DNA from: Planctomycetota bacterium
Lineage (GTDB): Bacteria; Planctomycetota; PLA2; JAEUHO01
DNA: 64,000 bases
Reading direction: 5' to 3'
Assembly (NCBI GenBank): GCA_020851795.1
Contig: JADZCA010000029.1
Coordinates: 49,271 to 113,270, forward strand
The notes under the pieces were generated by a model. That model did not search any database. It saw only the letters and a program-made list of their open reading frames with translations, and was not told the origin of the DNA. Both the position numbers and the translations under genes were made by a program. Below are positions 2,678 to 63,980 of this stretch, one piece after another. How positions within the stretch are numbered: position 1 is the first letter of the stretch; each line of letters begins with the position of its first letter.

Positions 2678-2687
2678 GGGGGGCACG

Positions 2688-5600: not shown

Positions 5601-6053
5601 GAGGGCCGGGCGCTGCCGCGGGCCTCGCTCCCGGCGGAGGTGGTCGCCGACTACGCGACGACGGGCCTCTCGCTCAAGGCGCACCCGATGTCGTTTCCGC
5701 GCGCCGCGCTCGCGGCGCGCGGCGTCGTGACGGCGGCGACGCTGTCCGACGACGAGCGCGCCCCCGACGGGTCGCGGGTGGCGGTGGCGGGCCTCGTGCT
5801 GGTGCGCCAGCGGCCCGTGACGGCGCACGGGATCCTCTTCGTGACGCTCGAGGACGAGACGGGGATCGCGAACCTGATCGTGCGGCCTCGCGAGCAGGAG
5901 CGGTTCCGCGCGGCCGCCCGCCACGCCGGCGTCGTGCTGGCCGTGGGCACGGTCGAGCGCGACGGCGCGGTCGTGCACGTCCTCGTGCGCCGCCTCGTCG
6001 CCTTCACCTCGCTCGCGACCGACGTGGACGCGCCCCGCCGCGAGTTCCGCTGA
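2688..6053 (+). CDS. dnaE2: Error-prone DNA polymerase III alpha subunit DnaE2 (ImuC)
   Basis: N-terminal PHP domain 'YAELAVTSNLSFLEGASHPEELVERAAALGLAGVALTDRGTLGGIVRAHVAAKALGFPLAVGARL'. About 1100 aa. Follows imuB. True start is probably a GTG/TTG near 2800-2840. Confidence 0.9.
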   Translation: MPDRPAPKIVPHPARQRRAFRPPRGAGAGGDGARDVEASWTRRRLPARRTTYAELAVTSNLSFLEGASHPEELVERAAALGLAGVALTDRGTLGGIVRAHVAAKALGFPLAVGARLALARDRADAAPLEVLVYATDRASYGRLCRLLTVGKRRAGKGGCDLALDDLLAAHEGLLAVALAPAAPDAAFLDALRRLHDAFDDDRLSLGAQSPLAGDDRGRVRRARALARDAGTPLVAVGDVAYHDAARRPLHDVLAAVRLGTTVAAAGFSLAPNAERRLHGVAEVAARFTDAPEALARTGEVLRRAAAFSLDALRYEYPDETGPPGVAPREHLRALVLAGAARRYPRGVPEKVRAQVEHELAVVADLRYEPYFLTVHELVDFARSRGILCQGRGAAANSAVCYCLGITALDPDRMDVLFERFVSRERAEPPDIDIDFEHERREEVIQHVYARWGRDRAALTAEVISYRGRSAVREVGKALGLSRDAVERLARAVDAWADDVDGDRLLVEAGLDPAEPSMRRLLALSKEVLGFPRHRSQHVGGFVVTRGPLCETVPLEDAAMPGRTVIEWDKDDIEALGILKVDVLGLGMLTCVRKAFAHVEGPRGDRALATVTQAGDAYGALAMHTVPPEDPAVYDMLCAADTVGVFQVESRAQMAMLPRLRPRTLYDLAIEVAIVRPGPIQGDMVHPYLRRRRGEEPVTYPSPDVEKVLGRTLGVPLFQEQAMALAIVAAGFTPGEADRLRRAMAAWKRKSREIEVLGRQLVEGMVARGYPREFADRCHRQIHGFSEYGFPESHAASFALIVYVSAWLKRHHPAAFAAALLDSQPMGFYAPAQIVRDARAHGVDVRPVDVNASGFDCRLEREPGRPPALRLGMRLVTGLSRTHGEAVAAARAAGAPFAALPEVRRRAGVPAAALRALAAADAFRSLGLARREALWQARALRDEVLPLFDAPADDGRPDAGAGATTADLALADEGRALPRASLPAEVVADYATTGLSLKAHPMSFPRAALAARGVVTAATLSDDERAPDGSRVAVAGLVLVRQRPVTAHGILFVTLEDETGIANLIVRPREQERFRAAARHAGVVLAVGTVERDGAVVHVLVRRLVAFTSLATDVDAPRREFR

Positions 6054-6199: not shown

Positions 6200-9100
6200 T
6201 CAGCGCCGGAGCGGGAGCGTGCTCACGTCGCGCGCGACCGCCGCGGCCGCGCGACGCTCCCTCCGCAGAGGCAGGCAACGCACCTTCGACGTCTCGACGA
6301 GGACGATCGCCGTGTCGTCCAGGAACCCCACGGCACTGCAGGGCGAGTCCGTCCGCCACGAGAGCGCGAGCCGGCCGCTCACGACGTCCCAGAGCCGCAC
6401 CCACTGGTCGCCGTGCGCAACGAGCAGGAACTCGCCTTGCCGGTCCGCCTCCATCGCCGTCACCGCGTGCGGTGCGGGTCCCATCGTGAACACCGGTGCG
6501 CGGAACGTGTTCGGGTCCTCGGCGCGCTCGCCCCGCACCACGAGCGCGTGGAGAAGCGCACCCGACCGACCGTCCCAGACGCGCACGGACCCGTCGCCCT
6601 CCGCGCTCAGCAGCCGCCGGCCCGTCGGGTCGAACGCCATCGAGGTCACCACGGTGGGGGTCCGCGACAGATGCGCGGGGGACGCGGCGCCGTCCAGCGA
6701 GAGCAGGTGCATCCGACCGCTGTCGTCCATCAGCGCGACGCGATCCTCCTCGGGGCTGAGGCAGGCGAGCGAAGGCCAACCCAACGGGTCGAGGTCGGGC
6801 GCAGCCTCCGCCGCGAACCCGCGCCCTCGGTCTCGCCAGAGCGTGACACGACCGCTACCCGATCGCGTGAGGAGGGTCGTGCCGAGGGCGCCCAGCACCG
6901 CCTGGCGGTCCTCGCGCGGGAACACCTGGAGCGGCCGACGGGCCTCCAGCGGGTCGAGCGACCACAGCGCGACCCCCGACGAGCCGAAAGACACCGCGCG
7001 CCCGCCCCGCGACGCCACGGCCGCCCAGACCGTCTCCATCCCGCCCACCCGCACCCCGCCGCCCGACGTCGCCTCCACGGGCGACAGGGACGCGACCTCG
7101 CCGAGCGTCCGAGCGTCCACGACGCGCAAGACGCCCGTGTAGTACGGCGCGAGCAGGAGCCGGCTCCCATCGGCAAAGGGGACGAAGCTCAGCAGCGGCC
7201 CGTCCGTCGCCCGCACCGAGAGCGGCGCCGCCTCTCCGTCCACGTCCCACGCGAGAAGCTCTCCGGTGTGCGCCGCGACGTGGACGGTGCGAGGCCTGGC
7301 GCCGACCACGACCCGCGAGATCCCCTGCGGCACCGGCAACGACCGCTCCCGCACCCCTTGGGCCTCGCGCCACGCCCAGACGCGCAGCGTGCCGTCGCGT
7401 CCCGCGGTGACGACCTGGTCCGGGTCGTGGCCGAACGCGAGCGTGCTGAGCCCCTCGGCGACGTCCCACGCTGCGACCGACGCGCCGTCGCGGACACGGA
7501 GGACCGCGACGTCGCCCGAGTCCGTGCCCCAGAGGAGGTGCTCTCCCCGCGCATCGAAGGCGGTCGGGACTCCGACGGCGAGCGCCGCGGGTGAGCCTCG
7601 TGCCGGCGCCGCCGCCGTGCGCCAGGTGAGGGACTGCGTGTCGAGCAGGTGGATCCTCCCGTCCACGTCGTGCAGCGCGAGCAAGGTGTCGTCCGGGGCG
7701 AAGGACCACGACAGCGGTCGCGCCTCCTCCGGGGCGCGCGCGGCCTCGGCTCCGGTCCCGGCGGACAGGACGCGAAGGTCGCCCGCCGCGCCGGGGCAGA
7801 CGATCCACGCGCCTCGCGGGCTGAATCCGGTCCCGCGCGCTCCGGCCCCCGTAGGTGGCTTGGGAAGCTCGGCGGTCGTCGCCCCCGTGGAGAGGTCTAC
7901 CAAGCGTGCCCCTTCCGCTGTGATCACGAGGCCGCGGTCGCCATCCGGCGCCTCCAAGAATCGCGGGGGCGTCCCGCTGACCCCGCCGAGGTCTGACCGG
8001 ACCGTCCCGTCTCGCGCGTCGCAGACCACCGATCGCGTCCGGCTCAGCAGCACGACGAGCGAGGACCCGCGAGCGAACGCGCCGGCGTCCCAAGGTCCGG
8101 AGATCTCGCGTCGCTTCTCGCCGGACTTCACGTCCCAGAGCAGCGCGTCGGGCGACGTCCTGCTCGCGTTGTCGTGGACCAGCGTGAGCAGGAGCGCGCC
8201 GTCGCCGCCGAGGACCGCGTGGACGACGTTCCCGCGCGCGTAGAATGCATGCGGGGACGGCTCGCCGCCGGGCAGCGTCACGACCTGCGCGCGCACCGAG
8301 TCGCCGTGCTGGCGCAGCGTGACCGCAAGGCGGCCGTCCTGGGTGGCCCAGCCCTCGACCGTCCCGAAGAGCATGTTGCGGACGGTGGCCACCGGCTCGG
8401 TGCGCGAGAGGTCCCACGCGACGACGGGTTGGCCCCACGTCGGGGCCGCGAAGAGGACGGACCCGTCGGCGGACGGCCGCAGCTGCTCGACCTGCTCGGG
8501 CCGCCCCGAGAGCGTCCGACGGAGCCCGCGTGTCCGCGCCAGCGCCTCCCCGAGCAGGACCTGGCGCGCGGGCGAGCCCGGCTGCTCCGCGTACGCGTCG
8601 AGGAGGAGTCGCGTCGCGCGATCGATGTCACCGCGCACGAGCGCGTCGCGTCCGGCCTCCTCGCGCAGGTCTCCGAGCCGTTCGCTCGCCACGAGCATGC
8701 TGGCCGCCACCCGGTCGCGCTCGTCCCGCACCTGGCTCCGCTGGTTCAACGCGTAGGCGGACAGCCCGCCCAGCGCCGAGGCGAGGGCGGCGAACAGCAC
8801 GGCCGTGCGGCGCGCGCGACGTCGCTGGCGCTCCTGGTCGCGCTGGCGGAGCTCGTCGAAGCGACATCCGAGCACCGGCGCCAGGATCCGGAGCAGCGCG
8901 AGCCGGCGTTGCGCGCTGCGCGACTCGCCGGCGACGGGACGTGCGTCGGCCGCGAGCGGCTCGGGGAAGTCCACCGCCGACGGCCCGCCGACGGGTCCGC
9001 CCGTCGGACGGATCGCCCGCAGAGCCTCGGGGAACGACGCCTCCGGTGAGCCGTCGATCAGGAGCGCGAGGACCCGGCTCGCACGCCCGCGGGTGCGGAA

Positions 9101-9409
9101 CTCCTCGATCTCCCGGTTGACCCACTTCGACGCGGGCGCGCGGGGTGAGCACACGACCACGAGGAACCTCGACTCGTCCAGCGCCTGCGTGATCTGCGCG
9201 CTCAGGCTGTCCGAGGCCCACACTTCCTCCTCGTCGCGGAACACCTTCCCGACGCGAGCCGGCAGCCCCTCCCGGCGGAGCCGCTCCGGGACCGTGTACG
9301 TCTCGAGCGCGTTGTGGAGCCATCGCGCCCAGCGCCGGTCGGGCTCCACGTGGCGATAGCTGATGAACGCTGCAAAGCGCGAGGGCGCGTCGCCGTCTTC
9401 GATCTCCAT
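6200..9409 (-). CDS. TIR-domain / transmembrane / WD40 beta-propeller repeat protein (1069 aa)
   Basis: N-terminus 'FAAFISYRHVEPDRRWARWLHNALE...FRDEEEVWASDSL...FLVVVCSPRAPASKWVNREIEEF' is TIR-like. Hydrophobic helix 'RRTAVLFAALASALGGLSAYAL'. Many WD40-like repeats ('TLRVWAW', 'VRVWDGRSG', 'VRLWDVVSG'). Amino-acid composition is protein-like, unlike the overlapping R/P-rich frames. Confidence 0.75.
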   Translation of the reverse strand: MEIEDGDAPSRFAAFISYRHVEPDRRWARWLHNALETYTVPERLRREGLPARVGKVFRDEEEVWASDSLSAQITQALDESRFLVVVCSPRAPASKWVNREIEEFRTRGRASRVLALLIDGSPEASFPEALRAIRPTGGPVGGPSAVDFPEPLAADARPVAGESRSAQRRLALLRILAPVLGCRFDELRQRDQERQRRRARRTAVLFAALASALGGLSAYALNQRSQVRDERDRVAASMLVASERLGDLREEAGRDALVRGDIDRATRLLLDAYAEQPGSPARQVLLGEALARTRGLRRTLSGRPEQVEQLRPSADGSVLFAAPTWGQPVVAWDLSRTEPVATVRNMLFGTVEGWATQDGRLAVTLRQHGDSVRAQVVTLPGGEPSPHAFYARGNVVHAVLGGDGALLLTLVHDNASRTSPDALLWDVKSGEKRREISGPWDAGAFARGSSLVVLLSRTRSVVCDARDGTVRSDLGGVSGTPPRFLEAPDGDRGLVITAEGARLVDLSTGATTAELPKPPTGAGARGTGFSPRGAWIVCPGAAGDLRVLSAGTGAEAARAPEEARPLSWSFAPDDTLLALHDVDGRIHLLDTQSLTWRTAAAPARGSPAALAVGVPTAFDARGEHLLWGTDSGDVAVLRVRDGASVAAWDVAEGLSTLAFGHDPDQVVTAGRDGTLRVWAWREAQGVRERSLPVPQGISRVVVGARPRTVHVAAHTGELLAWDVDGEAAPLSVRATDGPLLSFVPFADGSRLLLAPYYTGVLRVVDARTLGEVASLSPVEATSGGGVRVGGMETVWAAVASRGGRAVSFGSSGVALWSLDPLEARRPLQVFPREDRQAVLGALGTTLLTRSGSGRVTLWRDRGRGFAAEAAPDLDPLGWPSLACLSPEEDRVALMDDSGRMHLLSLDGAASPAHLSRTPTVVTSMAFDPTGRRLLSAEGDGSVRVWDGRSGALLHALVVRGERAEDPNTFRAPVFTMGPAPHAVTAMEADRQGEFLLVAHGDQWVRLWDVVSGRLALSWRTDSPCSAVGFLDDTAIVLVETSKVRCLPLRRERRAAAAVARDVSTLPLRR

Positions 9410-39953: not shown

Positions 39954-40808
39954 CTACGAGACCCCCCAACGCTCAAGGATCGCGTCGAGCTGCGTGCTGT
40001 CGGCGTAGTCCACCTCGATGGTGCCCCCACGGCCCCGGCCTCGCACGCGGACCGACGCCCCGAGCGCCCGGCGAATCCGGTCCTCGATGTCCTTGAGGAA
40101 CGGGTCTGCCGCCTTCCCCGCCTTGCGCTTCGCGCCGGGCGCAAGCTGCGCGAGGCGCTCGATGTCACGCACGGACCACTGCTTCTCGATCGTCCAGGTC
40201 GCCACTTGGCTGCGCTTGGCGTCCGTCGGGAACTGGAGGATCGCCTTCGCCTGGCTCGCGGAGAGCCGCCCGTCCTCCAGGGCGAGCCTCACGTCCTCGG
40301 GGAGCTCGAGCAGGCGCAGCAGGTTGGCGACGGTCGCACGGTCCTTCCCCACGCGCTCCGCGACGCCCTCCTGCGTCAGCCCCTGCGTGTCCATCATGGC
40401 CTTCAGCGCACGCGCCTTCTCCAGCGCGTTCAGGTCGGCCCGCTGGAGGTTCTCCACGATCGCGAGCGTCTGCATGCCGGCGTCGTCCACGTCGCGCACG
40501 ACGGCGCGGATCCGGCTCCAGCCGAGCGCGCGGCACGCCCGCAGGCGGCGCTCGCCCGCGACCACCTCGTAGCCCCCCAAGGGCCCGCGGCGCACGACAA
40601 TGGGTTGCAGGAGGCCGTGCGCGGCGATGGAGGCCCGCAACTCCTCGAGGGCGTCCGGGTCGAAGACGCGCCGAGGCTGGTAGGGGTTGGCGCGGATCTC
40701 CTGCACCGGGAGCTCGTCGGCCGCCCGCGCCTCCTCGGCGCTCGGCTCGGCCACGGTGCTCTGGATCAGACCGCCGAGTCCACGGCCCAGACGTCGAGGT
40801 TGGTTCAT
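39954..40808 (-). CDS. parB: Chromosome partitioning protein ParB (Spo0J)
   Basis: Start 'MNQPRRLGRGLGGLI'. CTP-binding 'VVAGERRLRACRALG'. HTH 'QEGVAERVGKDRATVANLLRLLELP'. C-terminal dimerisation segment. The track ORF has a 47-aa spurious N-terminal extension. Confidence 0.9.
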   Translation of the reverse strand: MNQPRRLGRGLGGLIQSTVAEPSAEEARAADELPVQEIRANPYQPRRVFDPDALEELRASIAAHGLLQPIVVRRGPLGGYEVVAGERRLRACRALGWSRIRAVVRDVDDAGMQTLAIVENLQRADLNALEKARALKAMMDTQGLTQEGVAERVGKDRATVANLLRLLELPEDVRLALEDGRLSASQAKAILQFPTDAKRSQVATWTIEKQWSVRDIERLAQLAPGAKRKAGKAADPFLKDIEDRIRRALGASVRVRGRGRGGTIEVDYADSTQLDAILERWGVS

Positions 40809-40857
40809 GGGGGGGCTCCTTCGCGACCACCCCAAGATAGGCGATCCCGGCGACAGG

Positions 40858-40873
40858 TGTTCCCCGTGGAACA
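40858..40873. promoter_or_regulatory. parS-like site TGTTCCCCGTGGAACA (1 mismatch to TGTTCCACGTGGAACA)
   Basis: Read directly, 50 bp upstream of the parB start codon. Confidence 0.6.
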
Positions 40874-40902
40874 TCGATGGCCCGGGCGGCTCGGCCGCGC
40901 GA

Positions 40903-40918
40903 TGTTCCCCGTGGAACA
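40903..40918. promoter_or_regulatory. Second identical parS-like site TGTTCCCCGTGGAACA
   Basis: Read directly. 45 bp from the first copy, in the parB / membrane-protein divergent region. Confidence 0.6.
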
Positions 40919-40947
40919 TCACCGCGGGGCGCGTACACTCCCCGCCC

Positions 40948-41610
40948 ATGCTGCCTCGCGCCGCCTTCCCTTGGAGCCGACACCGCGCCGCGCGGGCGCT
41001 CCGCGCGCCCGGGCTGTGGGTCGCCGCAGGCCTGGGCGCGACCGCGGTCGTGGTCGGCTTCGGCCTCGACCTCCTCGCGTTCGATCACCCGGGCCAGCGG
41101 GGATGGTCCCTCGCGGTCTCGACGGCCACCGTGGTGTTCATCGCGTGGTGCCTCTGGGACCCGGAACTCCAAGACGAACAAGCCGACCGGTCGGTCCTTG
41201 AGGCATCGGCTCTCGGCGACGTCGGCCGATGGGCGGGCGCTCTCGCCGCCCGGAGCGCTTGGGCCGGGGCCCTAGCGGCGATGTGCCTGCTCTTAGCAAC
41301 TGTATTCTGCAAGCAAATGGGGGAGAGCGACGCTCCGAGCGTCCACGGGCTGGCCTGCGTTGCACTCGCGGCCTTCCCGGTGGTGGGGTGGGCGCACGCC
41401 ATCGCGGCCTGGCGCCCCGGGCCGACCGGGGCGGTGGTCGCGCTCGCGGCGTGGGTCGCCGGCCATGCGCTGCCCCCGCACGGCGTCGCGGCCCTGCTGC
41501 CGGCCCCCGCCGCGCCATCCGTGGATGCCGCGGCCGCGGCGCGTGGGGTCCTCGTGACCGCGGGCACGCTCCTCGTCGCCGCCGCCGGTCGACTCCGCCG
41601 TCGCGCGTGA
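40948..41610 (+). CDS. Hypothetical polytopic membrane protein (about 220 aa)
   Basis: 'GLWVAAGLGATAVVVGFGLDLLAF', 'VSTATVVFIAWCLW', 'LAAMCLLLATVF', 'LACVALAAFPVVGWAHAIAAW' are hydrophobic helices. ATG at 40948 chosen inside a 307-aa track ORF. Confidence 0.45.
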   Translation: MLPRAAFPWSRHRAARALRAPGLWVAAGLGATAVVVGFGLDLLAFDHPGQRGWSLAVSTATVVFIAWCLWDPELQDEQADRSVLEASALGDVGRWAGALAARSAWAGALAAMCLLLATVFCKQMGESDAPSVHGLACVALAAFPVVGWAHAIAAWRPGPTGAVVALAAWVAGHALPPHGVAALLPAPAAPSVDAAAAARGVLVTAGTLLVAAAGRLRRRA

Positions 41611-54575: not shown

Positions 54576-56018
54576 ATGACGGCCTCGAACGACCCGCGCT
54601 CCGACCTGCAGCGCCGGATCCTCGAGGCGGTGCGGCGGCGGCTCAAGAAGCGCCAGTTCGAGACGTGGTTCGCCCGGGCCTCCGTGCTGCGCCTGACGGA
54701 GGCCGAAGTCGTCGTGGGGGTCCCGAACTCCTTCCAGCAGGAGTGGATGACGAAGGAGTTCACCGGGGTGGTGTCCCAGGCCGCCCTCGAGATCACCGGG
54801 GCCCCGGTGGCCGCCCGGTTCGAGGTCGAGGGGGGCGCTGCCCCCCGGTCGGCCGACTCACCGGCGCCGCCCCCGACCCCGCACGACGTGCCCGCGCCCG
54901 TCGCGCCGGCCGTCGAGCCGATCGAGCCGGCCCGCCACGGCCGCCCGGCGCCCGCCGCCGCGCCGGTCCCGCCGCCGCCCCCCGACGCGACGGCCCCGCT
55001 GCCGCTCCAGCCGCACTACACGTTCGACCACTTCGTCGTCGGCCCGAGCAACCAGTTCGCCCACGCGGTCGCCCGCGCCGTCGCCGACCACCCGGGCGGC
55101 GAGAACAACCCGCTCTTCCTCTACGGCTCGGTCGGGCTCGGCAAGACGCACCTGCTCCAGGCGATCTGCCACGAGATCCTGCGCCGCAACCCGACGCTGC
55201 GGATCGGCTACCTCTCCTGCGAGCAGTTCACCAACGAGTACGTGTCGGCGGTGCAGCGCAACGCCACCGAGGCCTTCCGCGCGCGCCTGCGCAACGTGGA
55301 CATGCTCGTCATCGACGACATCCACTTCCTGGCGAACAAGGAACGGACGCAGGAAGAGTTCTTCCACACGTTCAACTCGCTCTACCACCAGCGCAAGCCG
55401 ATCATCCTGTCGAGCGACGCCGCGCCCAACGAGATCCCCACGCTCCAGGAGCGCCTCGTGTCGCGGTTCCGCTGGGGCGTCGTCGCGCAGCTCGAGCCGC
55501 CCGAGGTCGAGACCCGCATGGCGATCGTGCGGCGCAAGGCGGAACAGACCGGCCTGCAGCTGCCGCCCGACGTCGTGGAGTTCATGGCCACGAGCGTGCG
55601 CAACAACGTGCGCGAGCTCGAGGGCGCCCTCGCGAGCATCCGCAGCCGCGCGGCGATCGAGCAGCGCCCGATCGACCTCACGCTCGCCCGCACGGCGCTC
55701 GAGCCGCTGCTCCGCCAAGAGCCGACGCCGGTCTCGATCGAGCGGATCACCGAGACCGTCGCCGGCCACTTCGGCCTCAAGCTCTCCGACCTGCGGTCCT
55801 CCAAGCGCACGAAGAGCGTGTCGCAGCCCCGCCAGGTCGCGATGTGGCTCGCCCGCGAGCTCACGTCGCTCTCCTTGGTCGAGATCGGCGACTACTTCGG
55901 CGGCCGCGACCACACGACCGTGCTCTACGCCGTCGAGCGGACGGCGGACCGCGTCGCACAGCACGACGGGCTGCGGCAGACGGCCGAGCGGCTGCGCGAC
56001 CGGTTGCGCGCCCGCTGA
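54576..56018 (+). CDS. dnaA: Chromosomal replication initiator DnaA
   Basis: 'NPLFLYGSVGLGKTHLLQAICHEI' Walker A. 'MLVIDDIHFLANKERTQEEFFHTFN' box. C-terminal DNA-binding 'RQVAMWLARELTSLSLVEIGDYFGGRDHTTVLYA'. Confidence 0.95.
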   Translation: MTASNDPRSDLQRRILEAVRRRLKKRQFETWFARASVLRLTEAEVVVGVPNSFQQEWMTKEFTGVVSQAALEITGAPVAARFEVEGGAAPRSADSPAPPPTPHDVPAPVAPAVEPIEPARHGRPAPAAAPVPPPPPDATAPLPLQPHYTFDHFVVGPSNQFAHAVARAVADHPGGENNPLFLYGSVGLGKTHLLQAICHEILRRNPTLRIGYLSCEQFTNEYVSAVQRNATEAFRARLRNVDMLVIDDIHFLANKERTQEEFFHTFNSLYHQRKPIILSSDAAPNEIPTLQERLVSRFRWGVVAQLEPPEVETRMAIVRRKAEQTGLQLPPDVVEFMATSVRNNVRELEGALASIRSRAAIEQRPIDLTLARTALEPLLRQEPTPVSIERITETVAGHFGLKLSDLRSSKRTKSVSQPRQVAMWLARELTSLSLVEIGDYFGGRDHTTVLYAVERTADRVAQHDGLRQTAERLRDRLRAR

Positions 56019-56543
56019 CCGAACGGGTCACGGCGTTCCCCGACCGACCGCCCTGTTGGGCGGCGGGATTCCCCATGCCCATGCCGATGCAACTCGTTGG
56101 CCACCGGGCGGTTGGGTTGATCTCCCACGGACTTTCCACAGCCGCTGCCGCTGCGTCCTCCCACACGGTCGCCCCCGGCTCGATCGCCGCGAGCACCCCT
56201 ACGGCTAGCGGTCCTCTCGGTGCGATTCTTGGGGAAGGCGGGCGGAGCCGCGGGGACGTTCTCGGGACAGTCGGCGCGGCCCCGACACGACCCCGAGAAG
56301 GGGTCCTGCGAAGTCCCGAATTCGTTGTCAGCGTCCCCCTCGTCTCCGTACAATCCGTCCCCGGATCGAGGCCGTCTGGAACCCCGGTTGGACTCGTCGT
56401 AACCCCTTTGAATAAAGGGGGATAGGGCGAATGAGACAGCCGTGTTTCCACGAACGGACAGGGCTCAGGGAGACGAGGGAGAGAACCCAGAGTTCTCCCT
56501 CTCTTCCGGGACCCAGAGCAACCCGCTCCGACGAGAGGCAGTC
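56019..56543. other. Putative oriC (dnaA-dnaN intergenic, 525 bp) with DnaA-box-like 9-mers and an AT-rich inverted repeat
   Basis: CTTTCCACA at 56132-56140, TCTCCCACG at 56121-56129, TGTTTCCACG at 56443-56452, and CCCCTTTgaatAAAGGGG inverted repeat at 56403-56420. It is the longest intergenic region next to dnaA. Confidence 0.5.
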
Positions 56544-57656
56544 ATGCGCCTGAACGTCCCGACCGCCCCGCTGCTCGAAGCCGTCGGACTCGCCTCGGCG
56601 GTGGCCGCCTCGAAGAGCCCCAAGCGCATCCTCGAATGCGTGGCGCTCCGTGCGTCGCGGGCCGACGGGATCCGAGTCGAAGCGAGCGACCTCGACGTCA
56701 CCATCGCGATGCGCCTCGATGCGGGCGAGGTGGTCGAGGACGGCGTGGTCGCCGTGCCCGCGACGCGGCTCGTCAGCGTGCTGCGCGAGGTGGGCGAGGG
56801 CCGCAAGGACCTCACGCTCGTCGGGCAGGGCGGCCGGCTCGAGGTGGACACCCCCGACTGCCAGTTCCGCATCCACGGCGAGGACCCACAGGAGCTGCAC
56901 CCGTCCGAGGCCTTCCCCGGCGCCGCCGCGGCCACGCTGCCGTTCTCGGTGCTGCGCTCGATGATCGACCGGACCCAGTTCGCCACCGCGCGCGAGCCGG
57001 GTCGCTTCGCGCTGCACGGCGTGCAGTTCCGCTTCACGTCGAAGGAGCTCGAGGTCGTCGCCACCGACGGCCGCCGCTTGGCGAAAGCCGTGCACCCCGT
57101 GGCCTCCGGCCCGGCGACCGAGCTCAAGGTGATCGTGGGCACGAAGCCCCTCGCGCTCGTCTCGCGCCTGGCGGCCGACCCGACCGCGCAGGTCGAGGTC
57201 GCCGTCCACGACCGGCGGATCTACTTCCGCGTCGGACGCTGCCTGCTCTCCTCGCGCCTGATCGACGGCGCCTTCCCGCCGTACGAGCAGGTGATCCCGC
57301 AGTCGAGCGCCAAGGGCTTCGTGGCGAAGGCCGAGCGGCTCGCGACCGCGCTGCGCCGCGCCTCGCTGCTGACGACGCGCGAGATGCGCTCGGTCACGCT
57401 CGACTTCGGGCCCAACCTCCTCGTGCTCTCCTCGCGCGCCCCCGACGTCGGCGAGGCGAAGGTCTCGCTCGAGGTCCCCTACACCGAGGCTCCCGAGAAG
57501 CTCGGCTTCAACCCCGACTACCTGCTCGACGCGCTCAAGGTGATGGACCCGCAGGCGGACGTCCGCTTCGAGGTGACCTCGGCGCGCTCGCCCGGCAAGC
57601 TCACCGCGGGCGACGGCTACGTCTACGTCGTCAGCCCGGTGTCGGTGACGGAGTGA
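56544..57656 (+). CDS. dnaN: DNA polymerase III beta sliding clamp
   Basis: 'MRLNVPTAPLLEAVGLASAVAASKSPKRILECVALRA...' three-domain clamp. GAGAGG RBS before ATG 56544. 370 aa. Confidence 0.9.
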   Translation: MRLNVPTAPLLEAVGLASAVAASKSPKRILECVALRASRADGIRVEASDLDVTIAMRLDAGEVVEDGVVAVPATRLVSVLREVGEGRKDLTLVGQGGRLEVDTPDCQFRIHGEDPQELHPSEAFPGAAAATLPFSVLRSMIDRTQFATAREPGRFALHGVQFRFTSKELEVVATDGRRLAKAVHPVASGPATELKVIVGTKPLALVSRLAADPTAQVEVAVHDRRIYFRVGRCLLSSRLIDGAFPPYEQVIPQSSAKGFVAKAERLATALRRASLLTTREMRSVTLDFGPNLLVLSSRAPDVGEAKVSLEVPYTEAPEKLGFNPDYLLDALKVMDPQADVRFEVTSARSPGKLTAGDGYVYVVSPVSVTE

Positions 57657-58015
57657 CCGGAGCCCGGGCCCCGACCCCGACCGGTCCGTCGCGCGAGCCT
57701 GCGAGGGGCGGCCCCGCCCGCGCGATCGGGCAGGTGCTGCCGACGGCGATGCGCGGCCTCGGCCTGCCGCCGCGGGCGCTCGTGCACCGCGTCGAGGAAG
57801 CCTGGAAGGCCGTGGCCGACCCGGCGTGGGCGGCGCGCACGCGCATCGTCGCGCTGCAGCACGGCACGCTCCTCGTCGGCGTCGCCTCCGCGCCGCTGCG
57901 CGACGAGCTCGCCCGATTCCACGCCGAGCGCCTCCTCGAGGCGATGCGCGCCCGGCTGACCAAGGACCCGCTGGTGGCGCTGCGCTTCGTCGCGGCGGCC
58001 GAGGAACCCCGATGA
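57653..58015 (+). CDS. DUF721-domain protein (DciA-like), start uncertain (GTG 57653 / GTG 57734 / ATG 57749)
   Basis: 'AIGQVLPTAMRGLGLPPRALVHRVEEAWKAVADPAWAARTRIVALQHGTLLVGVASAPLRDELARFHAERLLEAMRARL' resembles DUF721. Sits at the dnaN-gyrB position. GTGA overlap with dnaN and ATGA overlap with gyrB. Confidence 0.6.
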   Translation: MTGARAPTPTGPSREPARGGPARAIGQVLPTAMRGLGLPPRALVHRVEEAWKAVADPAWAARTRIVALQHGTLLVGVASAPLRDELARFHAERLLEAMRARLTKDPLVALRFVAAAEEPR

Positions 58016-60639
58016 GCGTGCCCCCGAAGAAGCGCGACGACGCCCGCAAGCCCGCCGAGGAGCCGAAGGACCGGGCGCCGGCCTCGAAGGACGGCGCGGG
58101 GGCCAAGGACGCCGCCCCGCGACGCGACGAGCCGCCCGCCGCCCCGCCCAAGGACGACGCGGAGTACGGCGCCGACAAGATCCAGGTGCTCGAGGGGCTC
58201 GAGGCGGTGCGTCGCCGCCCGGGCATGTACATCGGCGACACGACGACCCGCGGGCTCCACCACCTCGTCTACGAGATCGTGGACAACTCGGTGGACGAGC
58301 ACCTCGCCGGCCACGCGCGCACGATCCAGGTGCGCGTCACGGCCGACGACGGCATCGTCGTCACCGACGACGGGCGAGGCATCCCGACCGACGAGGTCCC
58401 GGGCCAGGGGCTCTCGGGCGTCACGGTCGCGTACACGAAGCTGCACGCGGGCGGCAAGTTCGACCACGGCGCCTACAAGGTCTCCGGCGGCCTCCACGGC
58501 GTCGGCGCGAGCGTGGTCAACGCGCTCTCCGAGCGCTGCGAGGTCGAGGTCTACCAGCGCGGCAAGGTGCACTTCCAGGCGTTCGAGCGCGGTCGCGCGC
58601 TCACCAAGCTCGAGGTGCGCGGGCGGACCGACAAGCGCGGCACGAAGGTCTACTTCAAGCCCGACCCGAAGATCTTCCCGGTGACGAAGTTCGACGCCGG
58701 GACGATCGCGACGCGCCTGCGCGAGCTCGCGTTCCTCAACAAGGGCCTCGAGATCCTCTTCACCGACGAGCGCAACGACCCGCCCAAGGAGGAACGTTTC
58801 CGCTACGAGGGCGGCATCAAGGAGTTCGTCACCTGGCTCAACGAGGGCAAGGAGACGCTCCACAACGACGTCTTCTACATGGACCGCGAGCAGGACGGCG
58901 TCCGGGTCGAGATCGCGTTCCAGTTCAACAACGGGTTCAGCCAGGTCGAGCAGACCTTCGCCAACAACATCCACACGGTGGAGGGCGGGACGCACCTGTC
59001 CGGCTTCCGCACCGCGCTCACGCGGCGCCTGGCCGACTACAGCAAGCGCGAGAAGTACTTCTCGCCCGACGAGAAGCCGAGCGGCGACCACTTCCGCGAG
59101 GGGCTCACCGCGGTCATCTCGGTGAAGGTGCCCGACCCGCAGTTCGAGGGCCAGACCAAGACCAAGCTCGGCAACGGCGAGGTCGAGGGCATCGTCAACA
59201 GCGCCTTCGGCGACGCGCTCGCGACCTTCCTCGAGGAGAGCCCGCGCGCCGCCAAGTCGATCTGCGAGAAGGCGGTGCTCGCCTTCCGCGCCTACGAGGC
59301 GGCCCGCAAGGCCAAGGACCTCGTGCGCCGCAAGGGCGCGCTCGCCAGCGGCAACCTGCCGGGCAAGCTCGCCGACTGCCAGAACCGCGACCTCGAGTCC
59401 ACCGAGCTGTTCATCGTCGAGGGCGAGTCCGCCGGCGGCACCGCCAAGAGCGGCCGCGACCGCACGACGCAGGCGATCCTGCCGCTGCGCGGCAAGATCC
59501 TCAACGTCGAGAAGGCGCGCCTCGACAAGATGCTCGGGCACGAGGAGATCCGCACGCTGATCCAGGCGATCGGCACCGGGATCGGCCGCGAGGAGCCTGC
59601 CGGCGAGGGCTTCGACCTCTCGCGCCTGCGCTACGGCAAGGTCATCATCATGACCGACGCCGACGTGGACGGCAGCCACATCCGCACGCTGCTGCTCACG
59701 TTCTTCTTCCGCCACATGCTGCCGCTGGTCGAGGCGGGACGCGTCTACGTCGCGCAGCCGCCGCTGTTCAAGGTCGCGCGCAAGAAGTCGGAGGAGTACG
59801 TCTTCGAGGAGCGCGCCCTGCGCGCCAAGCTCCTCAAGCTCGGCTGCGAGAGCGCGCGCTTCGAGCCCGCGGGCCCGAAGGCCACCGCGGTGCAGGGCAA
59901 GGACTTCGCCGCGCTCGTCGAAGGCCTCGCCAAGCTCGAGGAGCTCGCGCGCGCCGTCGAGCGGCGCAGCGTCCCGCTCGCCACCTACCTCGCGGCGGAG
60001 AAGGACGGCCGGCTGCCGCTCGCGATCTGGCGCCCGGGCAAGGCCTCCGGCGGCGGCGCGGGCAAGGCCGCCCCGACCGAGCTCGACTTCGTGCGGACCG
60101 AGGACGGCATGAAGCGCCGGCTCGAGGAGCTCAAGGGGAAGCTCGGCCGCGACCCCGTGATCTTCGAGGAGGGCGACGACCCCAAGACGCGCGACAACGC
60201 CGACGTCGCGCTGACGCGCATCTACGAGCACGCCGAGATCGCGCGTGCCGCGAAGGCGCTCGAGCGCTTCGGCGTGGACCCGCGCACGTGGACGGTGCCG
60301 CTCGGGCCCGACGGCAAGCCCGCCAAGGCGCTCGGCCGCCTCGTGGTCGAGGGCGCCGACCCCGTGGACGTGGGCAGCCTGCGCGACCTGCTCGTCGAGG
60401 TGCGCAAGGCCGGCCAGCGCGGCGTGGACGTCCAGCGCTACAAGGGGCTCGGCGAGATGAACGCCGACCAGCTCAAGAGCACGACGATGGACCCCGAGCG
60501 GCGCACGCTCCTGCAGGTGCGGCTCTCCGACGTGGCCGAGTCCGACCGGCTCTTCGGGCTGCTCATGGGCGAGAGCGTCGAGCCGCGCAAGGTGTTCATC
60601 GAGGCGCACGCGCTCGAGGTGACCAACCTCGACGTCTGA
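58012..60639 (+). CDS. gyrB: DNA gyrase subunit B, with ~55-aa Lys/Asp/Pro-rich N-terminal extension
   Basis: 'YGADKIQVLEGLEAVRRRPGMYIGDT', 'LHAGGKFD', 'ELFIVEGESAGGTAK', 'PLRGKILNVEKA', 'IIMTDADVDGSHIRTLLLTFF', 'QRYKGLGEMN'. Confidence 0.95.
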   Translation: MSVPPKKRDDARKPAEEPKDRAPASKDGAGAKDAAPRRDEPPAAPPKDDAEYGADKIQVLEGLEAVRRRPGMYIGDTTTRGLHHLVYEIVDNSVDEHLAGHARTIQVRVTADDGIVVTDDGRGIPTDEVPGQGLSGVTVAYTKLHAGGKFDHGAYKVSGGLHGVGASVVNALSERCEVEVYQRGKVHFQAFERGRALTKLEVRGRTDKRGTKVYFKPDPKIFPVTKFDAGTIATRLRELAFLNKGLEILFTDERNDPPKEERFRYEGGIKEFVTWLNEGKETLHNDVFYMDREQDGVRVEIAFQFNNGFSQVEQTFANNIHTVEGGTHLSGFRTALTRRLADYSKREKYFSPDEKPSGDHFREGLTAVISVKVPDPQFEGQTKTKLGNGEVEGIVNSAFGDALATFLEESPRAAKSICEKAVLAFRAYEAARKAKDLVRRKGALASGNLPGKLADCQNRDLESTELFIVEGESAGGTAKSGRDRTTQAILPLRGKILNVEKARLDKMLGHEEIRTLIQAIGTGIGREEPAGEGFDLSRLRYGKVIIMTDADVDGSHIRTLLLTFFFRHMLPLVEAGRVYVAQPPLFKVARKKSEEYVFEERALRAKLLKLGCESARFEPAGPKATAVQGKDFAALVEGLAKLEELARAVERRSVPLATYLAAEKDGRLPLAIWRPGKASGGGAGKAAPTELDFVRTEDGMKRRLEELKGKLGRDPVIFEEGDDPKTRDNADVALTRIYEHAEIARAAKALERFGVDPRTWTVPLGPDGKPAKALGRLVVEGADPVDVGSLRDLLVEVRKAGQRGVDVQRYKGLGEMNADQLKSTTMDPERRTLLQVRLSDVAESDRLFGLLMGESVEPRKVFIEAHALEVTNLDV

Positions 60640-60694
60640 CGTCGAAGCGGGGCCGCCCGGGGGCACCCGGGTTCAAGGCGGAGGCTCCCCCCGG

Positions 60695-60704
60695 CCGATA
60701 TCGG
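60695..60704. promoter_or_regulatory. Perfect 10-bp palindrome CCGATATCGG, 15 nt upstream of the MshEN-like gene
   Basis: Read directly. AT-rich centre in GC-rich context. GGAG RBS follows. Confidence 0.3.
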
Positions 60705-60718
60705 TCGCGGAGCCACCC

Positions 60719-61252
60719 GTGGACCCCTACGAGAAGTTCCTGCGCCGCCCCCTCGACGAGGTCCTCGTCGCCCAGGGGGTCCTCAACCGCGAGACCGCCG
60801 ACCAGCTGCGCGAGAGCGCGGAGGCGGCCGGCGAGCCGTTCGCGACCGCCGTGCTCGACTCCGGCGCGCTCACCCCGTGGGACCTCGCGCGCCTGATCGC
60901 CGTCCACTACCAGATCCCGGTCCACCCGCTCACGGGCTTCAAGTTCGGCAAGGAGCTCTTCGAGGGCACGCGCGCGGACCTGCTCCACCGCTACCAGTTC
61001 GTGCCGGTGGGCGTGTTCGGGGCGACGCGCACGTTCGCGGTCCTCGAGCCGCCGCCGCGGTCGCTCGTCGAGGAGCTGCGCGGCAACCACGGCGAGAACG
61101 TCTTCTTCTTCGTCTCGGAGAGCACCGAGATCGCGCGCGCCCTGTCCAACGAGGTCAAGGTCGTCGACACCGAGTCCGACCGCGGCTGGCAGAAGCTCTT
61201 CGACAGCGCCGAGGCGGAGATCTCCCGCAACGGCGAGGAGTCCACGAGCTGA
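60719..61252 (+). CDS. Small protein with MshEN / T2SSE_N-like (putative c-di-GMP-binding) domain
   Basis: 'RPLDEVLVAQGVLNRETADQLRES' fits motif RLGxxLLxxGxLxxxxLxxALxxQ. 'ALTPWDLARLIAVHYQIPVHPL' fits the second half-motif (LxxxLAxxxGxPxxxL). 177 aa. Confidence 0.6.
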   Translation: MDPYEKFLRRPLDEVLVAQGVLNRETADQLRESAEAAGEPFATAVLDSGALTPWDLARLIAVHYQIPVHPLTGFKFGKELFEGTRADLLHRYQFVPVGVFGATRTFAVLEPPPRSLVEELRGNHGENVFFFVSESTEIARALSNEVKVVDTESDRGWQKLFDSAEAEISRNGEESTS

Positions 61253-61299
61253 CGCGCTTCGGCGCGCGCCCGGCTCGGCTCGGGTCGCGCCGCGCCGGG

Positions 61300-61695
61300 T
61301 CAGACCGGCGGCGGGTCGTCGTCGTACGGCGCGCGCGTCGGCGCGTCGGACGTGCGCGGCGGCGCCGCCGTGCGCGGCTCCGCAATCGGCGCCGTCACCG
61401 GCGCGGGCGGCGGGGCCGCCGACGCCACGGGCCCCGTGCCGAGGCGCGGGTCGGGCCCGGGCGCGAAGGTCGTCGCCGCGGGCGTCGGCGGCGTCGGGCG
61501 ATACGGCGGGCGCGCCACCGCGTCCGGCTTCATCACGTTGCGCGAGAGGTCGTCGAAGCCGCGTCGGAACGTGCGGTACGCGCCGCCGAGCGAGCGCATG
61601 ACCTCGGGGAGCCGCCCGCCGAAGAGCAGCAGCGCGACGATGCCGACGACGACCATCTCGCCGAAGCCGATGTCGAAGAACGCGAGCGGCGTCAT
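61300..61695 (-). CDS. tatA: Twin-arginine translocase subunit TatA/E with Pro-rich C-terminal tail
   Basis: 'MTPLAFFDIGFGEMVVVGIVALLLFGGRLPEVMRSLGGAYRTFRRG' is the TatA TM plus amphipathic helix. 131 aa. ATGA overlap with the upstream gene. Confidence 0.8.
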   Translation of the reverse strand: MTPLAFFDIGFGEMVVVGIVALLLFGGRLPEVMRSLGGAYRTFRRGFDDLSRNVMKPDAVARPPYRPTPPTPAATTFAPGPDPRLGTGPVASAAPPPAPVTAPIAEPRTAAPPRTSDAPTRAPYDDDPPPV

Positions 61696-63980
61696 TTCTT
61701 GGGCAGCCCCATGACGAAGTCGGCGCCCTCGACGTCGGCGGCGCCGGTCCGCGTGTCGTAGGAGAAGCGGCGGCCCCGCCCCGAGAAGCCCGGGCGGTCC
61801 ACGAGCACGCCGTCGCGGCCGGTGAGCTCGAGCTTGCCCGTGCGGCCCTCGTAGACGAGCCGGTCGCCCGCGGCGCGCGTGGACGTGCCACCGGCGCCCG
61901 CGCCCGTCTCGATGCGCGTGCCGGGCCCTTCGGCGACGAAGCGCTCGACCTCGGTGCGGCTCGCGCCGAAGCCGCCCGTCGTCGTGAGCTCGATGCGCGG
62001 GGTCGCGAGCGCCACCGACCCTCCGAACTCCGTCTTGCCGTCCTCGCGCACGGTGCGCGTGACGAGCACCGGCGTCGCGGCGCTGCCCTCGATCACCACG
62101 CGGCCGACGGCGTCGAGGGTGAGCGGGCCCGCCTCGGAGCGCAGGACGAGGCGCTCGGTGCGCTTGGCCTTGGCGTCGCGGGCGTGGACGAGCGCCGAGA
62201 CGGGCGCGGCGAAGCGCGCGCCGACGAGCGACGTCCCCGAGACGTCGAACTCGACGGTGGGGGACGCGATGCGCTGCGGGAGGTCGGGCTGGTCGGCCGA
62301 CACGAGCGCGCGTCCGCCCGGCCGCGCCTCGAGCCGGCCGCGCAGCAGCCCGCCGTCGGAGCGGACCGACAGACGCTCGCCGTCGAAGCGGCGCGTCCCG
62401 CCGTCGTCGCCCGCGCCGGTGGCGCGCACGCCGCCGGTCGCGTCGAGCCGACGCAGCGCGTCGGCCCCGCGGTCGCCGGGCCCCGTCGCGACCTCGACCT
62501 CGAGGGTCGCGCAATCGAGCGTCCACCGCGTGGCGTCGACGGGCGCGGGGCGGCGAGCGGTCGGGTCCGCCTTCGGCTTGCCGGCGGCCGGGGACGCGGG
62601 GCCCGCCGTCGGCGCGGCCGCCGCGGTCGGCTCCGCGGTCTTCGGCGCGGCGCGCTCGACGAGCACCACGCTGATCGTCGTCGCCGAGACGCGGTCGGCC
62701 GGCGCGCCGTCCACGCGGTTCTCGAGCGAGGCCCCGTCCCGCGCGCGCACGACGACGGTGCGCTCGCCCGCGCCCGTGCGGCCCGCGCTCGCCTCGAGGC
62801 CCGAGCCGGCGCGCAGCGCGACGCTGCGGCGCCCCTTGCCGGGCCGTCCGCGGCGGTCGAGGTCGGCCCCCGTCCAGACGACCGCGCGCGCGCCGTCGCG
62901 CGCCCACAGCGATGCGGTGCTCGTCCCGAGGCGGAAGCCGACCACCGGCGCTTCGATCGACTGGTCGCGGCCGCGCTCCCCGGGGTACGTCAGCACCGCC
63001 GGCCGCTCCTTCGAGCCGCGCAGCTCGCCGCCGTCGGCGGCGGCGTAGGTGAGGGAGTCGCCGGTGAACGAGACCGGCAGGTCGCCCGGCCGCGGCGAGA
63101 GGGAGCCCCGCACCTGACCGACGGCGTCGAGGCGGTCGGGGGCCCACGCCCCGCGTTCGCGGCGCGACGCCTTCTTGCCCTTGCCGTCGTCGGAGGCCGA
63201 GGCGCCGTCCTTGGCGTCGGGCTTCTTCGCGCGCGCGCGCGGGGCCGTCGCGTCCTCGGTCACCTCGACCCAGGCGTCGGGCCCCGTCACGACGAGTCGC
63301 CACGCGTCGTCGCGGTCGAGGTCGAACGCCTTCATCTCGCGGGCGCGGCCGACCACCGTCGGCCCCGAGAGGCGCACGTCGCCGCCGGAGGCCACGAACG
63401 CGATCGCGACGCGGTCCTCGGGGCGGTTGCGCGCGGCCGGCGTGGGGGAGCCGCGCTTCTCGTCGGGCGCGTCGGTCGCGCGGCGCAGGAAGAGGCGGAT
63501 CCGGTCGGCCTCGATGCGCTGACGCTCGCCGTCGGCGGTCTCCGAGCCCTCGATGCGCACGGCGCCGACGAGGTCCACCACCGCGTCGCAGCCCTGCGGG
63601 GCGTCCGAGCCCGGGGCGGGCGGCGCGTAGGAGAGGCGCTCGCGGCACGTCGCGGTCACGAAGCCGCGGCGCGCGCCGCCGCCGGGGAGCGAGAGGTCGC
63701 CGTGGTAGCGCAGCGTCGTCGCGCCCTCGAGCAGCGCGGTGCCGCCGCCGTCGTCGTCGAAGCGGCCGACGAGGCGGTCCGTCTGCAGCGACACGGACCG
63801 CACGACCTCGTGCGACGGGCCCTCGCGCGTGCGGCTCTCGGCCGACACGGCGCCGTCCGCGGTGATCCGCGCCAGCCGGAAGCGGCCGCGGTCGCCCGCG
63901 AGCAGCGGGGCCCCGGCCACCGCGGCGTCCTTCGCCGCGGGCCGCGGCGCGGCGTCGCCGCGGGGCTCGAGGACGAGCAC
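61692..63980 (-). CDS. Large hypothetical beta-rich (D/G/T/V-rich) probably periplasmic protein; frame is open to the window edge so the gene may extend past 64000
   Basis: Frame composition is protein-like ('ERLVLRSEAGPLTLDAVGRVVIEGSAATPVLVTRTV', 'GRTGKLELTGRDGVLVD'), unlike the overlapping Arg-rich frame 61300..63648. Coupled to tatA. Confidence 0.45.
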   Translation of the reverse strand: MLVLEPRGDAAPRPAAKDAAVAGAPLLAGDRGRFRLARITADGAVSAESRTREGPSHEVVRSVSLQTDRLVGRFDDDGGGTALLEGATTLRYHGDLSLPGGGARRGFVTATCRERLSYAPPAPGSDAPQGCDAVVDLVGAVRIEGSETADGERQRIEADRIRLFLRRATDAPDEKRGSPTPAARNRPEDRVAIAFVASGGDVRLSGPTVVGRAREMKAFDLDRDDAWRLVVTGPDAWVEVTEDATAPRARAKKPDAKDGASASDDGKGKKASRRERGAWAPDRLDAVGQVRGSLSPRPGDLPVSFTGDSLTYAAADGGELRGSKERPAVLTYPGERGRDQSIEAPVVGFRLGTSTASLWARDGARAVVWTGADLDRRGRPGKGRRSVALRAGSGLEASAGRTGAGERTVVVRARDGASLENRVDGAPADRVSATTISVVLVERAAPKTAEPTAAAAPTAGPASPAAGKPKADPTARRPAPVDATRWTLDCATLEVEVATGPGDRGADALRRLDATGGVRATGAGDDGGTRRFDGERLSVRSDGGLLRGRLEARPGGRALVSADQPDLPQRIASPTVEFDVSGTSLVGARFAAPVSALVHARDAKAKRTERLVLRSEAGPLTLDAVGRVVIEGSAATPVLVTRTVREDGKTEFGGSVALATPRIELTTTGGFGASRTEVERFVAEGPGTRIETGAGAGGTSTRAAGDRLVYEGRTGKLELTGRDGVLVDRPGFSGRGRRFSYDTRTGAADVEGADFVMGLPKK

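Follow-up and report, generated by a model that had tools for sequence, protein, structure and literature searches.

A free-standing MshEN-type protein with degenerate c-di-GMP motifs beside gyrB in Planctomycetota

Does the small protein encoded directly behind gyrB in a Planctomycetota bacterium act as a receptor for cyclic di-GMP (c-di-GMP)? The question arose from a 64,000-nucleotide stretch of GenBank contig JADZCA010000029.1 (positions 49,271 to 113,270; hereafter the window, with a G+C content of 76.6%). A first-pass annotation made from the sequence alone had picked out an open reading frame (ORF) of 177 residues, here called gene X (60719..61252 on the + strand in the ORF list, GTG start, stop included), as a stand-alone MshEN-like protein and a possible c-di-GMP receptor or adaptor. 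Among c-di-GMP receptor domains only MshEN and PilZ have a broad distribution across the bacterial phyla, ComFB having recently been proposed as a third, and genome censuses often count each match to the Pfam MshEN model as a receptor. We found that the gene X protein is a stand-alone MshEN-type domain whose family has replaced the key residues of both nucleotide half-sites.

A stand-alone MshEN domain

Four independent tests agreed that the gene X protein is a stand-alone MshEN-type domain, which bears out the first-pass call. That annotation had named the lack of a profile hit, together with that of c-di-GMP binding, as grounds for giving the call up; a search with Pfam PF05157 (MshEN, T2SSE_N) returned a match above its cut-off (27.0 bits versus 23.1, E 4.6e-6) at residues 64-143. 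The NCBIfam PilB equivalog model aligned its positions 2-147, of 564, with residues 12-157 (E 2e-12), the score being 46 bits against a cut-off of 676. When a profile of 40 orthologues was compared with the PDB, the PilB N-termini of Geobacter and Myxococcus, Xanthomonas PilB-N and Vibrio cholerae MshE were found at E values from 1e-15 to 2e-8. The AlphaFold2 model (predicted local distance difference test, pLDDT, 85.9; predicted template modelling score, pTM, 0.74) contains both subdomains of the MshEN fold, an N-terminal four-helix bundle at residues 12-64 and a C-terminal three-stranded alpha/beta subdomain at about 78-145 (strands 94-100, 103-108 and 127-132). A further helix was modelled at the C-terminus, at residues 155-172. 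There is no ATPase domain, as the protein ends at residue 177 and matched no ATPase family. Nor do its neighbours, which are dnaA, dnaN, dciA, gyrB, tatA, an LptD_N-like gene and a Hydrolase_3 gene, form the pil or gsp cluster by which GspE, PilB and MshE ATPases are recognized. The codons of gene X, which end in a TGA stop at 61250-61252 (+), have a G+C content of 0.99 at the third position and 0.43 at the second, the signature of a genuine coding frame in this genome. The product is acidic (isoelectric point 4.8; 4.3-5.1 among the members checked) and 100% identical to the NCBI entry 'MAG: hypothetical protein IT460_05425 [Planctomycetes bacterium]', MAG denoting a metagenome-assembled genome.

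A first homologue search recovered 39 relatives of the window protein, mostly 173-198 residues long and without a recorded domain fusion; in the few entries with a source name, that name was 'hypothetical protein' or 'PilB'. Together with the window protein they make up the 40 proteins of the orthologue set, 36 of which have a precomputed PF05157 match. Identity to the window protein ranged from 42 to 83%, with 12 invariant alignment columns and 35 columns conserved at 90% or more, and all eight genome loci found for the family were Planctomycetota MAGs. An exhaustive profile search gave 7359 matches at E <=1e-3, among which only four clusters at 50% identity belonged to the tight family (clade A). 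The tier below it consisted of other free-standing proteins of 170-230 residues that matched the profile from end to end. Among the 150 best-scoring representatives, 66 were shorter than 250 residues and 105 shorter than 400, so a free-standing MshEN domain is common rather than exceptional. The gene X proteins fall into four Planctomycetota clades, A to D, which are about 25% identical to each other; 276-residue MshEN proteins (P0253), found in an unrelated genomic context, formed an outgroup. A metagenome scan with the single clade D protein P0190 as query returned just the N-termini of full-length, ATPase-sized ORFs and no stand-alone relatives. Gene X belongs to the uncharacterized stand-alone entries of Planctomycetota MAGs that are annotated generically as 'GspE/PulE/PilB domain-containing protein', for which the searched literature described no function, ligand or context. 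The domain family itself is known; we found no paper that describes the gene X family, its C-terminal motif or its linkage to gyrB.

The c-di-GMP half-sites

In MshEN domains, c-di-GMP is bound almost wholly by the N-terminal bundle (PMC5013675). The sole part of the gene X protein matched by PF05157 is the MshEN_C alpha/beta subdomain (residues 64-145; 60908..61153, + strand), so that the Pfam match says nothing about the nucleotide site. The site is formed by two copies of a motif with R-L-G at positions 1-2-3, Leu at 17 and 21 and Gln at 24. Arg1 of each motif stacks on guanine, Gln24 bonds ribose and phosphate, and Leu-type residues at positions 2, 17 and 21 form hydrophobic clusters around each guanine (Wang et al. 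2016).

The motif register in gene X was set by a gapless family-profile alignment of its residues 12-143 to residues 5-136 of Myxococcus xanthus PilB. In this alignment the Leu of RLG falls opposite L12 and the Gln opposite A34, and in the second copy R-I-G pairs with P40-F41-A42 and the Gln with H63. The resulting module has motif 1 at residues 11-34 (PLDEVLVAQGVLNRETADQLRESA; 60749..60820, + strand), a spacer at 35-39 and motif 2 at 40-63 (PFATAVLDSGALTPWDLARLIAVH; 60836..60907, + strand), which amounts to 24+5+24 = 53 residues exactly. Both copies are degenerate. Motif 1 reads P-L-D at positions 1-2-3, Ala at 17, Arg at 21 and Ala at 24, the canonical R1, G3, L21 and Q24 thus having become P, D, R and A; motif 2 reads P-F-A, Leu at 17, Ile at 21 and His at 24, with P, A and H in place of R1, G3 and Q24. 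The hydrophobic positions are kept at L12, F41, L56 and I60 and changed at Ala27 (position 17) and Arg31 (position 21) of motif 1, the latter position being hydrophobic in most orthologues. Motif 2 also carries a family-specific W54-D55 pair that is nearly invariant in the orthologues. The first-pass annotation had read residues 10-33 as a good fit to the motif, and this proved to be one residue out of register, as placing R10 on the motif Arg puts Q19 on the turn Gly. Residues 51-72, which it had taken for the second half-motif, are not a motif copy; of these, just 51-63 fall within motif 2, at its end.

Not even the relaxed pattern with which Wang et al. (2016) searched, [RKPN]hGxxhhxx[GAS]hhxxxxhxxxhxx[QNKRYWST] with Gly3 strict, accommodates the gene X protein; 0/40 orthologues passed it in half-site 1 and 2/40 in half-site 2. 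Position 1 of either motif is never R or K in the 40 sequences, being P (23/40) or S (14/40) in most copies of motif 1 and P (33/40) in most copies of motif 2. Gly3 is present in 2/40 copies of motif 1 and 16/40 of motif 2. At position 24 motif 1 has Ala in 39/40, and motif 2 has His in 29/40 and Gln in 7/40. No member of clade A has both half-sites intact. Since the substitutions are fixed across the whole orthologue family, they do not reflect a sequencing quirk.

The other clades retain more of the motif, clade A, to which the window protein belongs, having the most degenerate copies. Clade D (P0285, P0278, P0276, P0190) has essentially canonical half-sites, for example KLGELL...EALKEQ and PIGNVL...Q, and P0285, which is gyrB-linked, keeps both (KLG...Q and PIG...Q). 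Clade C (P0064 and relatives) has kept motif 1. Clade B, which comprises 53 sequences including MHC4821090.1 and MCK6480557.1, shows [RK]L[SA]...S...L in motif 1 and PLG...H in motif 2. Read most simply, this series would start from a c-di-GMP-sensing ancestor that carried an effector peptide at its C-terminus and whose ligand site was lost in some lineages. A c-di-GMP receptor role is plausible for the more distant gyrB-linked relatives in which both motifs are intact. An intact-to-degenerate motif series at one chromosomal position, after gyrB, makes a convenient system for following the fate of a sensor domain after ligand loss. The gene X case also bears on receptor censuses, because the Pfam model scores the C-terminal subdomain rather than the nucleotide site, and because fold and spacing can persist in an entire orthologue family in which non-binding residues have become fixed.

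Comparison with characterized domains indicates what such changes cost. Binding constants measured for characterized MshEN members lie between 14 nM and 0.5 uM (dissociation constant for c-di-GMP). V. cholerae MshE (PDB 5htl), the founding c-di-GMP receptor of the MshEN type, shares with gene X the 24+5+24 layout, the turn glycines, most core hydrophobics and an N-terminal basic patch, while its R9, G11, L29, Q32, R38, G40 and Q61 are matched in gene X by P, D, R, A, P, A and H. In MshE, the G11L mutant had no detectable binding, and affinity fell 72-fold in G40I, 9-fold in Q32A, 12-fold in Q61A and 28-fold in L29A; single changes at four of the replaced positions thus cost from 9-fold to complete loss of binding. 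The closest structures to the gene X protein are Thermus thermophilus PilF GSPII-A and XpsE-N, both shown experimentally to be non-binders. PilF GSPII-A (PDB 9g1w) deviates from the consensus only at H33, S39, A41, I55, I59 and R62; it did not bind c-di-GMP by isothermal titration calorimetry (ITC) or nuclear magnetic resonance (NMR), and restoring the consensus alone did not rescue binding (PMC12002112). Like gene X it has non-Gln residues at position 24 of both motifs and, in motif 2, a non-Arg residue at position 1 and Ala at position 3. Gene X has moved further from the consensus: both its motifs start with Pro, and motif 1 has Asp in place of Gly3. The two proteins also differ in setting, PilF GSPII-A standing first among the three N-terminal domains that a pilus ATPase carries, whereas gene X is free-standing, carries a W-x-x-L-F-D helix and lies beside gyrB. 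XpsE, with substitutions comparable to those of gene X, shows no c-di-GMP binding either. The replacement of the key Arg, Gly and Gln residues, the losses seen in MshE mutants and the resemblance to non-binders together make canonical c-di-GMP binding by the gene X protein unlikely.

Could the protein still be a working receptor that uses a modified site? In such a site R9/R10 would stand in for the motif Arg, W54 or H63 would supply new contacts, and the signal would pass through the C-terminal helix. The complete MshEN fold with its exact spacing is in keeping with this, as are the conserved R9-R10 pair, which aligns with the basic patch R7, K8 of MshE, the tolerance of Pro at position 1 in the relaxed motif, and the retention of both half-sites in gyrB-linked relatives such as P0285. 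Against this, the strict Gly3 is Asp in half-site 1, where the corresponding G11L change abolishes MshE binding; Gln24 has given way to Ala and His in nearly all and in most orthologues, respectively; L21 of motif 1 is Arg in the gene X protein; and PilF GSPII-A shows no binding with milder changes (H33, S39, A41, R62). That no clade member has both half-sites intact points the same way. We therefore consider a working receptor improbable, and residual or altered nucleotide binding likewise has a low probability in our estimate. Of the two roles offered by the first-pass annotation, that of receptor is thus unlikely, the Arg, Gly and Gln being lost in both half-sites, while that of adaptor is still plausible.

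Conserved surroundings of gene X

The gyrB gene (58012..60639, + strand; Pfam HATPase_c, DNA_gyraseB, Toprim and DNA_gyraseB_C on the called gene) has its stop at 60639, which leaves a gap of 79 nt to the start of gene X and confirms that gene X lies directly 3' of gyrB. The same adjacency was found in 15/17 assessable loci spread over the four clades, three loci that duplicate the window (L009-L011) having been left out of this count. In clade A gene X abuts the gyrB 3' end in 8/8 genome loci, six of them co-directional; in the remaining two (L006, L007) it is inverted and convergent with gyrB. The order dnaA-dnaN-dciA-gyrB-X recurred in clade B (L012-L014), clade C (L019) and clade D (L025, L026), and between clade B and the window gyrB is 52% identical and gene X 23-26%. 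The downstream neighbour varied by locus, being tatA on either strand, Ser/Thr kinases or an FGE-sulfatase protein, with gyrB constant upstream. A constant gyrB next to varying downstream genes speaks for a genuine link to gyrB rather than for block synteny alone, and as a sign of function we regard the linkage as circumstantial. The exceptions to adjacency were L016 and L018. At L016 (3-632, 629-1210) the gene for the canonical-motif relative P0190 shares 4 nt with the 3' end of a gene matched by Pfam Secretin (E 1e-46) and is followed by biotin-synthesis genes; this was the sole pilus- or secretion-linked context found for the family.

A second conserved element lies at the C-terminus, where residues 157-168 form the motif W-x-x-[LI]-F-D-x-A-x-x-x-[VI] (WQKLFDSAEAEI; 61187..61222, + strand), a proposed docking peptide. 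W157, F161 and D162 are nearly invariant in the family, and W157 and F161 also belong to the handful of positions shared by all four clades, between which identity is about 25%. In wider relatives the motif follows an acidic Ala-rich linker and takes the form W-x-x-[LI]-F-[DE]-x-[AG]-x-x-x-[VIM], further examples beside that of the window being DWMSIFEEAEKKM, WKSLFDSANESV and WEKLFDMANESI. It is sometimes repeated: P0071, P0140 and P0143 carry [LI]FD-x-A-x-x-x-V two or three times in a Lys/Pro-rich tail. Such repetition is consistent with a modular docking peptide. P0135 and P0147 have an added TPR-like C-terminus. A beta-clamp-binding motif was also considered for the WQKLFD segment and rejected, because QLxLF has one residue more between Q and F than this segment does and because clades B to D lack the Q.

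Upstream of gene X we found a conserved box, GGnCGATA(G/T), at 60693..60701 (+ strand), which may be a -10-like promoter element or an operator. It occurs once in the window. Its G, G, C, G, A, T and A are invariant in 9/9 clade-A upstream regions, 17-33 nt before the start codon, and it is kept in both loci in which gene X is inverted relative to gyrB. Because the box travels with the inverted gene, gene X probably has its own promoter and is not expressed by read-through from gyrB. A -35-like hexamer, TTCAAG, is proposed at 60672..60677 (+ strand), 18-19 nt upstream of the box; TTCAAG, CTCAAG, TTCAGA, TTCAGG, TTCGAG or TTCATG stands at the aligned position in 7/9 orthologues, L003 and L007 deviating. 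Hexamer and box together make a candidate promoter. The ribosome-binding site is GGAG at 60709..60712 (+ strand), 6 nt 5' of the GTG, where orthologues align GGAG, GGGAG or GGAA. In clade B the region between gyrB and the MshEN-like gene (L012:6825-7001, L013:6866-7001, L014:6518-6616) contains a conserved TTGCCG (or TTGTCC), about 17 nt and TAGCAT, a pair that looks like a classical sigma-70 promoter.

The first-pass annotation had noted a palindrome before the gene, and CCGATATCGG is indeed present at 60695-60704, once in the window, overlapping the box. With up to one mismatch it was found once versus 1.6 times expected, and at least once in 86/100 shuffles, which is chance level. The orthologue versions of the site, CCGATAGG or TCGATAGG, are not palindromic; the palindrome is thus a window-specific variant of the conserved box, of which only the GGnCGATA half is conserved, and we rejected it as an operator. 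Folding of the gyrB-X spacer RNA gave -50.1 kcal/mol, not better than shuffles (z -1.7), and we accordingly claim no RNA element.

Candidate role of gene X and other features of the window

We consider it somewhat probable, judging from sequence, that gene X encodes a ligand-independent protein-protein adaptor descended from a c-di-GMP-sensing MshEN protein. It would be a cytoplasmic, single-domain protein made up of a complete MshEN/GSPII fold and a short conserved C-terminal helix, in which loss of the nucleotide site in the window's clade would have left an adaptor that works without ligand. Two surfaces may serve for docking, a remodelled face of the four-helix bundle (R9, R10, Q19, W54, D55 and H63-Y64-Q65-x-P67) and the acidic amphipathic W-x-x-[LI]-F-D helix, and expression would probably start from the gene's own promoter. 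There are precedents for docking by degenerate MshEN domains, as the N-domain of XpsE/EpsE binds GspL and Xanthomonas PilB-N binds PilZ. These domains (Xanthomonas XpsE and Vibrio EpsE, PDB 2d27/2d28 and 2bh1; X. citri PilB-N-PilZ, 7lko) belong to proteins with ATPase domains encoded in gsp or pil clusters; unlike them, gene X has neither. Among candidate partners we would rank the replication/topology module first, on synteny only, and a pilus or secretion machine second, on homology and one secretin-linked relative.

Several observations weigh against the adaptor. The 24+5+24 spacing, the turn glycines G20 and G49, most core hydrophobics and R9-R10 (nearly invariant, and aligned with the R7-K8 basic patch of MshE) are all retained, and weak or altered nucleotide binding could persist with them. 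AlphaFold2 models tend to be apo-like, so that likeness to non-binders is weak evidence. The C-terminal helix, one of the two proposed docking surfaces, was modelled with low confidence (pLDDT 50-62). The synteny with gyrB may merely reflect a frozen, unusually stable gene order near the origin. Finally, a promoter and terminator scan of 60300-61800 with the sigma-70 consensus found nothing, and the box itself has no sigma-70 match.

If gene X were instead a detached N-domain, it might act in trans on a PilB/GspE ATPase or on partners of the PilM, GspL or PilZ type, and its position after gyrB would be incidental. The nearest relatives of known function are PilB N-termini, in XpsE/EpsE and Xanthomonas PilB the N-domain is degenerate and serves as a docking module, and P0190 overlaps a secretin gene. 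That secretin context is a single locus, however, set against 15/17 contexts that adjoin gyrB and not pilus genes. The ORFs scanned in the window included no pil, gsp/secretion, secretin or GGDEF/EAL gene, and MshEN is fused to many non-pilus outputs, so that a pilus function does not follow from homology alone. Action in trans on a pilus or secretion system appears unlikely to us on this balance.

The linkage to gyrB also admits a more ambitious reading, in which the gyrB-adjacent family would be a Planctomycetota-specific regulator tying the state of the second messenger to gyrase, to DciA-dependent loading of the helicase or to the initiation of replication, with the motif-keeping clades responsive to c-di-GMP and the window's clade independent of ligand. 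We give this reading only a slim chance; if true, c-di-GMP would for the first time be tied to chromosome replication or topology through an MshEN-type protein. If the linkage is functional, it would suggest that the replication/topology module has an undescribed accessory factor, in a phylum whose cell cycle is run by poorly understood machinery. With its degenerate motif the locus loses some of its original appeal, and the deep gyrB linkage together with the motif series makes it a modest, testable lead.

It is very improbable that gene X is a functionless passenger or decaying remnant held in place by conserved origin-proximal gene order: the stepwise decay of the c-di-GMP motif from clade D to clade A and the fast evolution of gene X relative to gyrB (about 25% versus about 52% identity between clades) would fit decay, but the frame is intact in every locus, third-position G+C is 0.99, 12 columns are invariant and 35 are at >=90% in the 40 orthologues, the replacement residues are themselves fixed (A34, P40, W54, D55), and upstream box and C-terminal helix are conserved. 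An anti-phage defence role was rejected as well, a PADLOC search having given no match.

Upstream of gyrB, the called genes run from a class-V aminotransferase, which is 5' of dnaA, through dnaA (54576-56018), dnaN and dciA (57653..58015, + strand; helicase operator, DUF721; Pfam DciA, E 4.8e-11). It is dciA, not recF, that lies between dnaN and gyrB, with a 4-nt overlap with each, and the order dnaN-dciA-gyrB was present in all related Planctomycetota loci examined. On the other side, a tatA-like gene (61300..61695, - strand; Pfam TatA_B_E) is convergent with gene X, and beyond it, also on the minus strand, follow a gene whose long product matches LptD_N faintly and a gene of the Hydrolase_3 (HAD) family. 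A ParB gene (ParB_N, HTH_ParB, ParB_C) at 39954-40949 (-), about 14 kb before dnaA, is consistent with an origin-proximal window. The DnaA box TTATCCACA was found nowhere in the whole window with up to one mismatch, and oriC was consequently not placed; the dnaA-dnaN spacer (56019-56543) has the lowest G+C nearby, 0.64-0.70.

Three further observations concern genes away from gyrB. At 875-6053 (+) a gene for an IMS/ImuB-like Y-family polymerase (875-2677) is followed by one for a DnaE-type Pol III alpha subunit of 1121 residues (2688-6053), an arrangement that, by sequence, is that of an imuB-dnaE2 mutagenesis cassette. The 1069-residue protein encoded at 6200-9409 (-) begins with a TIR domain (TIR_2 / ThsB_TIR), has WD40 repeats in its C-terminal part and may be a defence or signalling TIR protein without an NTPase. 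Past the right end of the window, in the duplicate locus L009 (15548-17299), a called gene of 583 residues combines SMC_ScpA with Formyl_trans_N and Formyl_trans_C (methionyl-tRNA formyltransferase); either this fusion is real or the gene caller has joined two genes.

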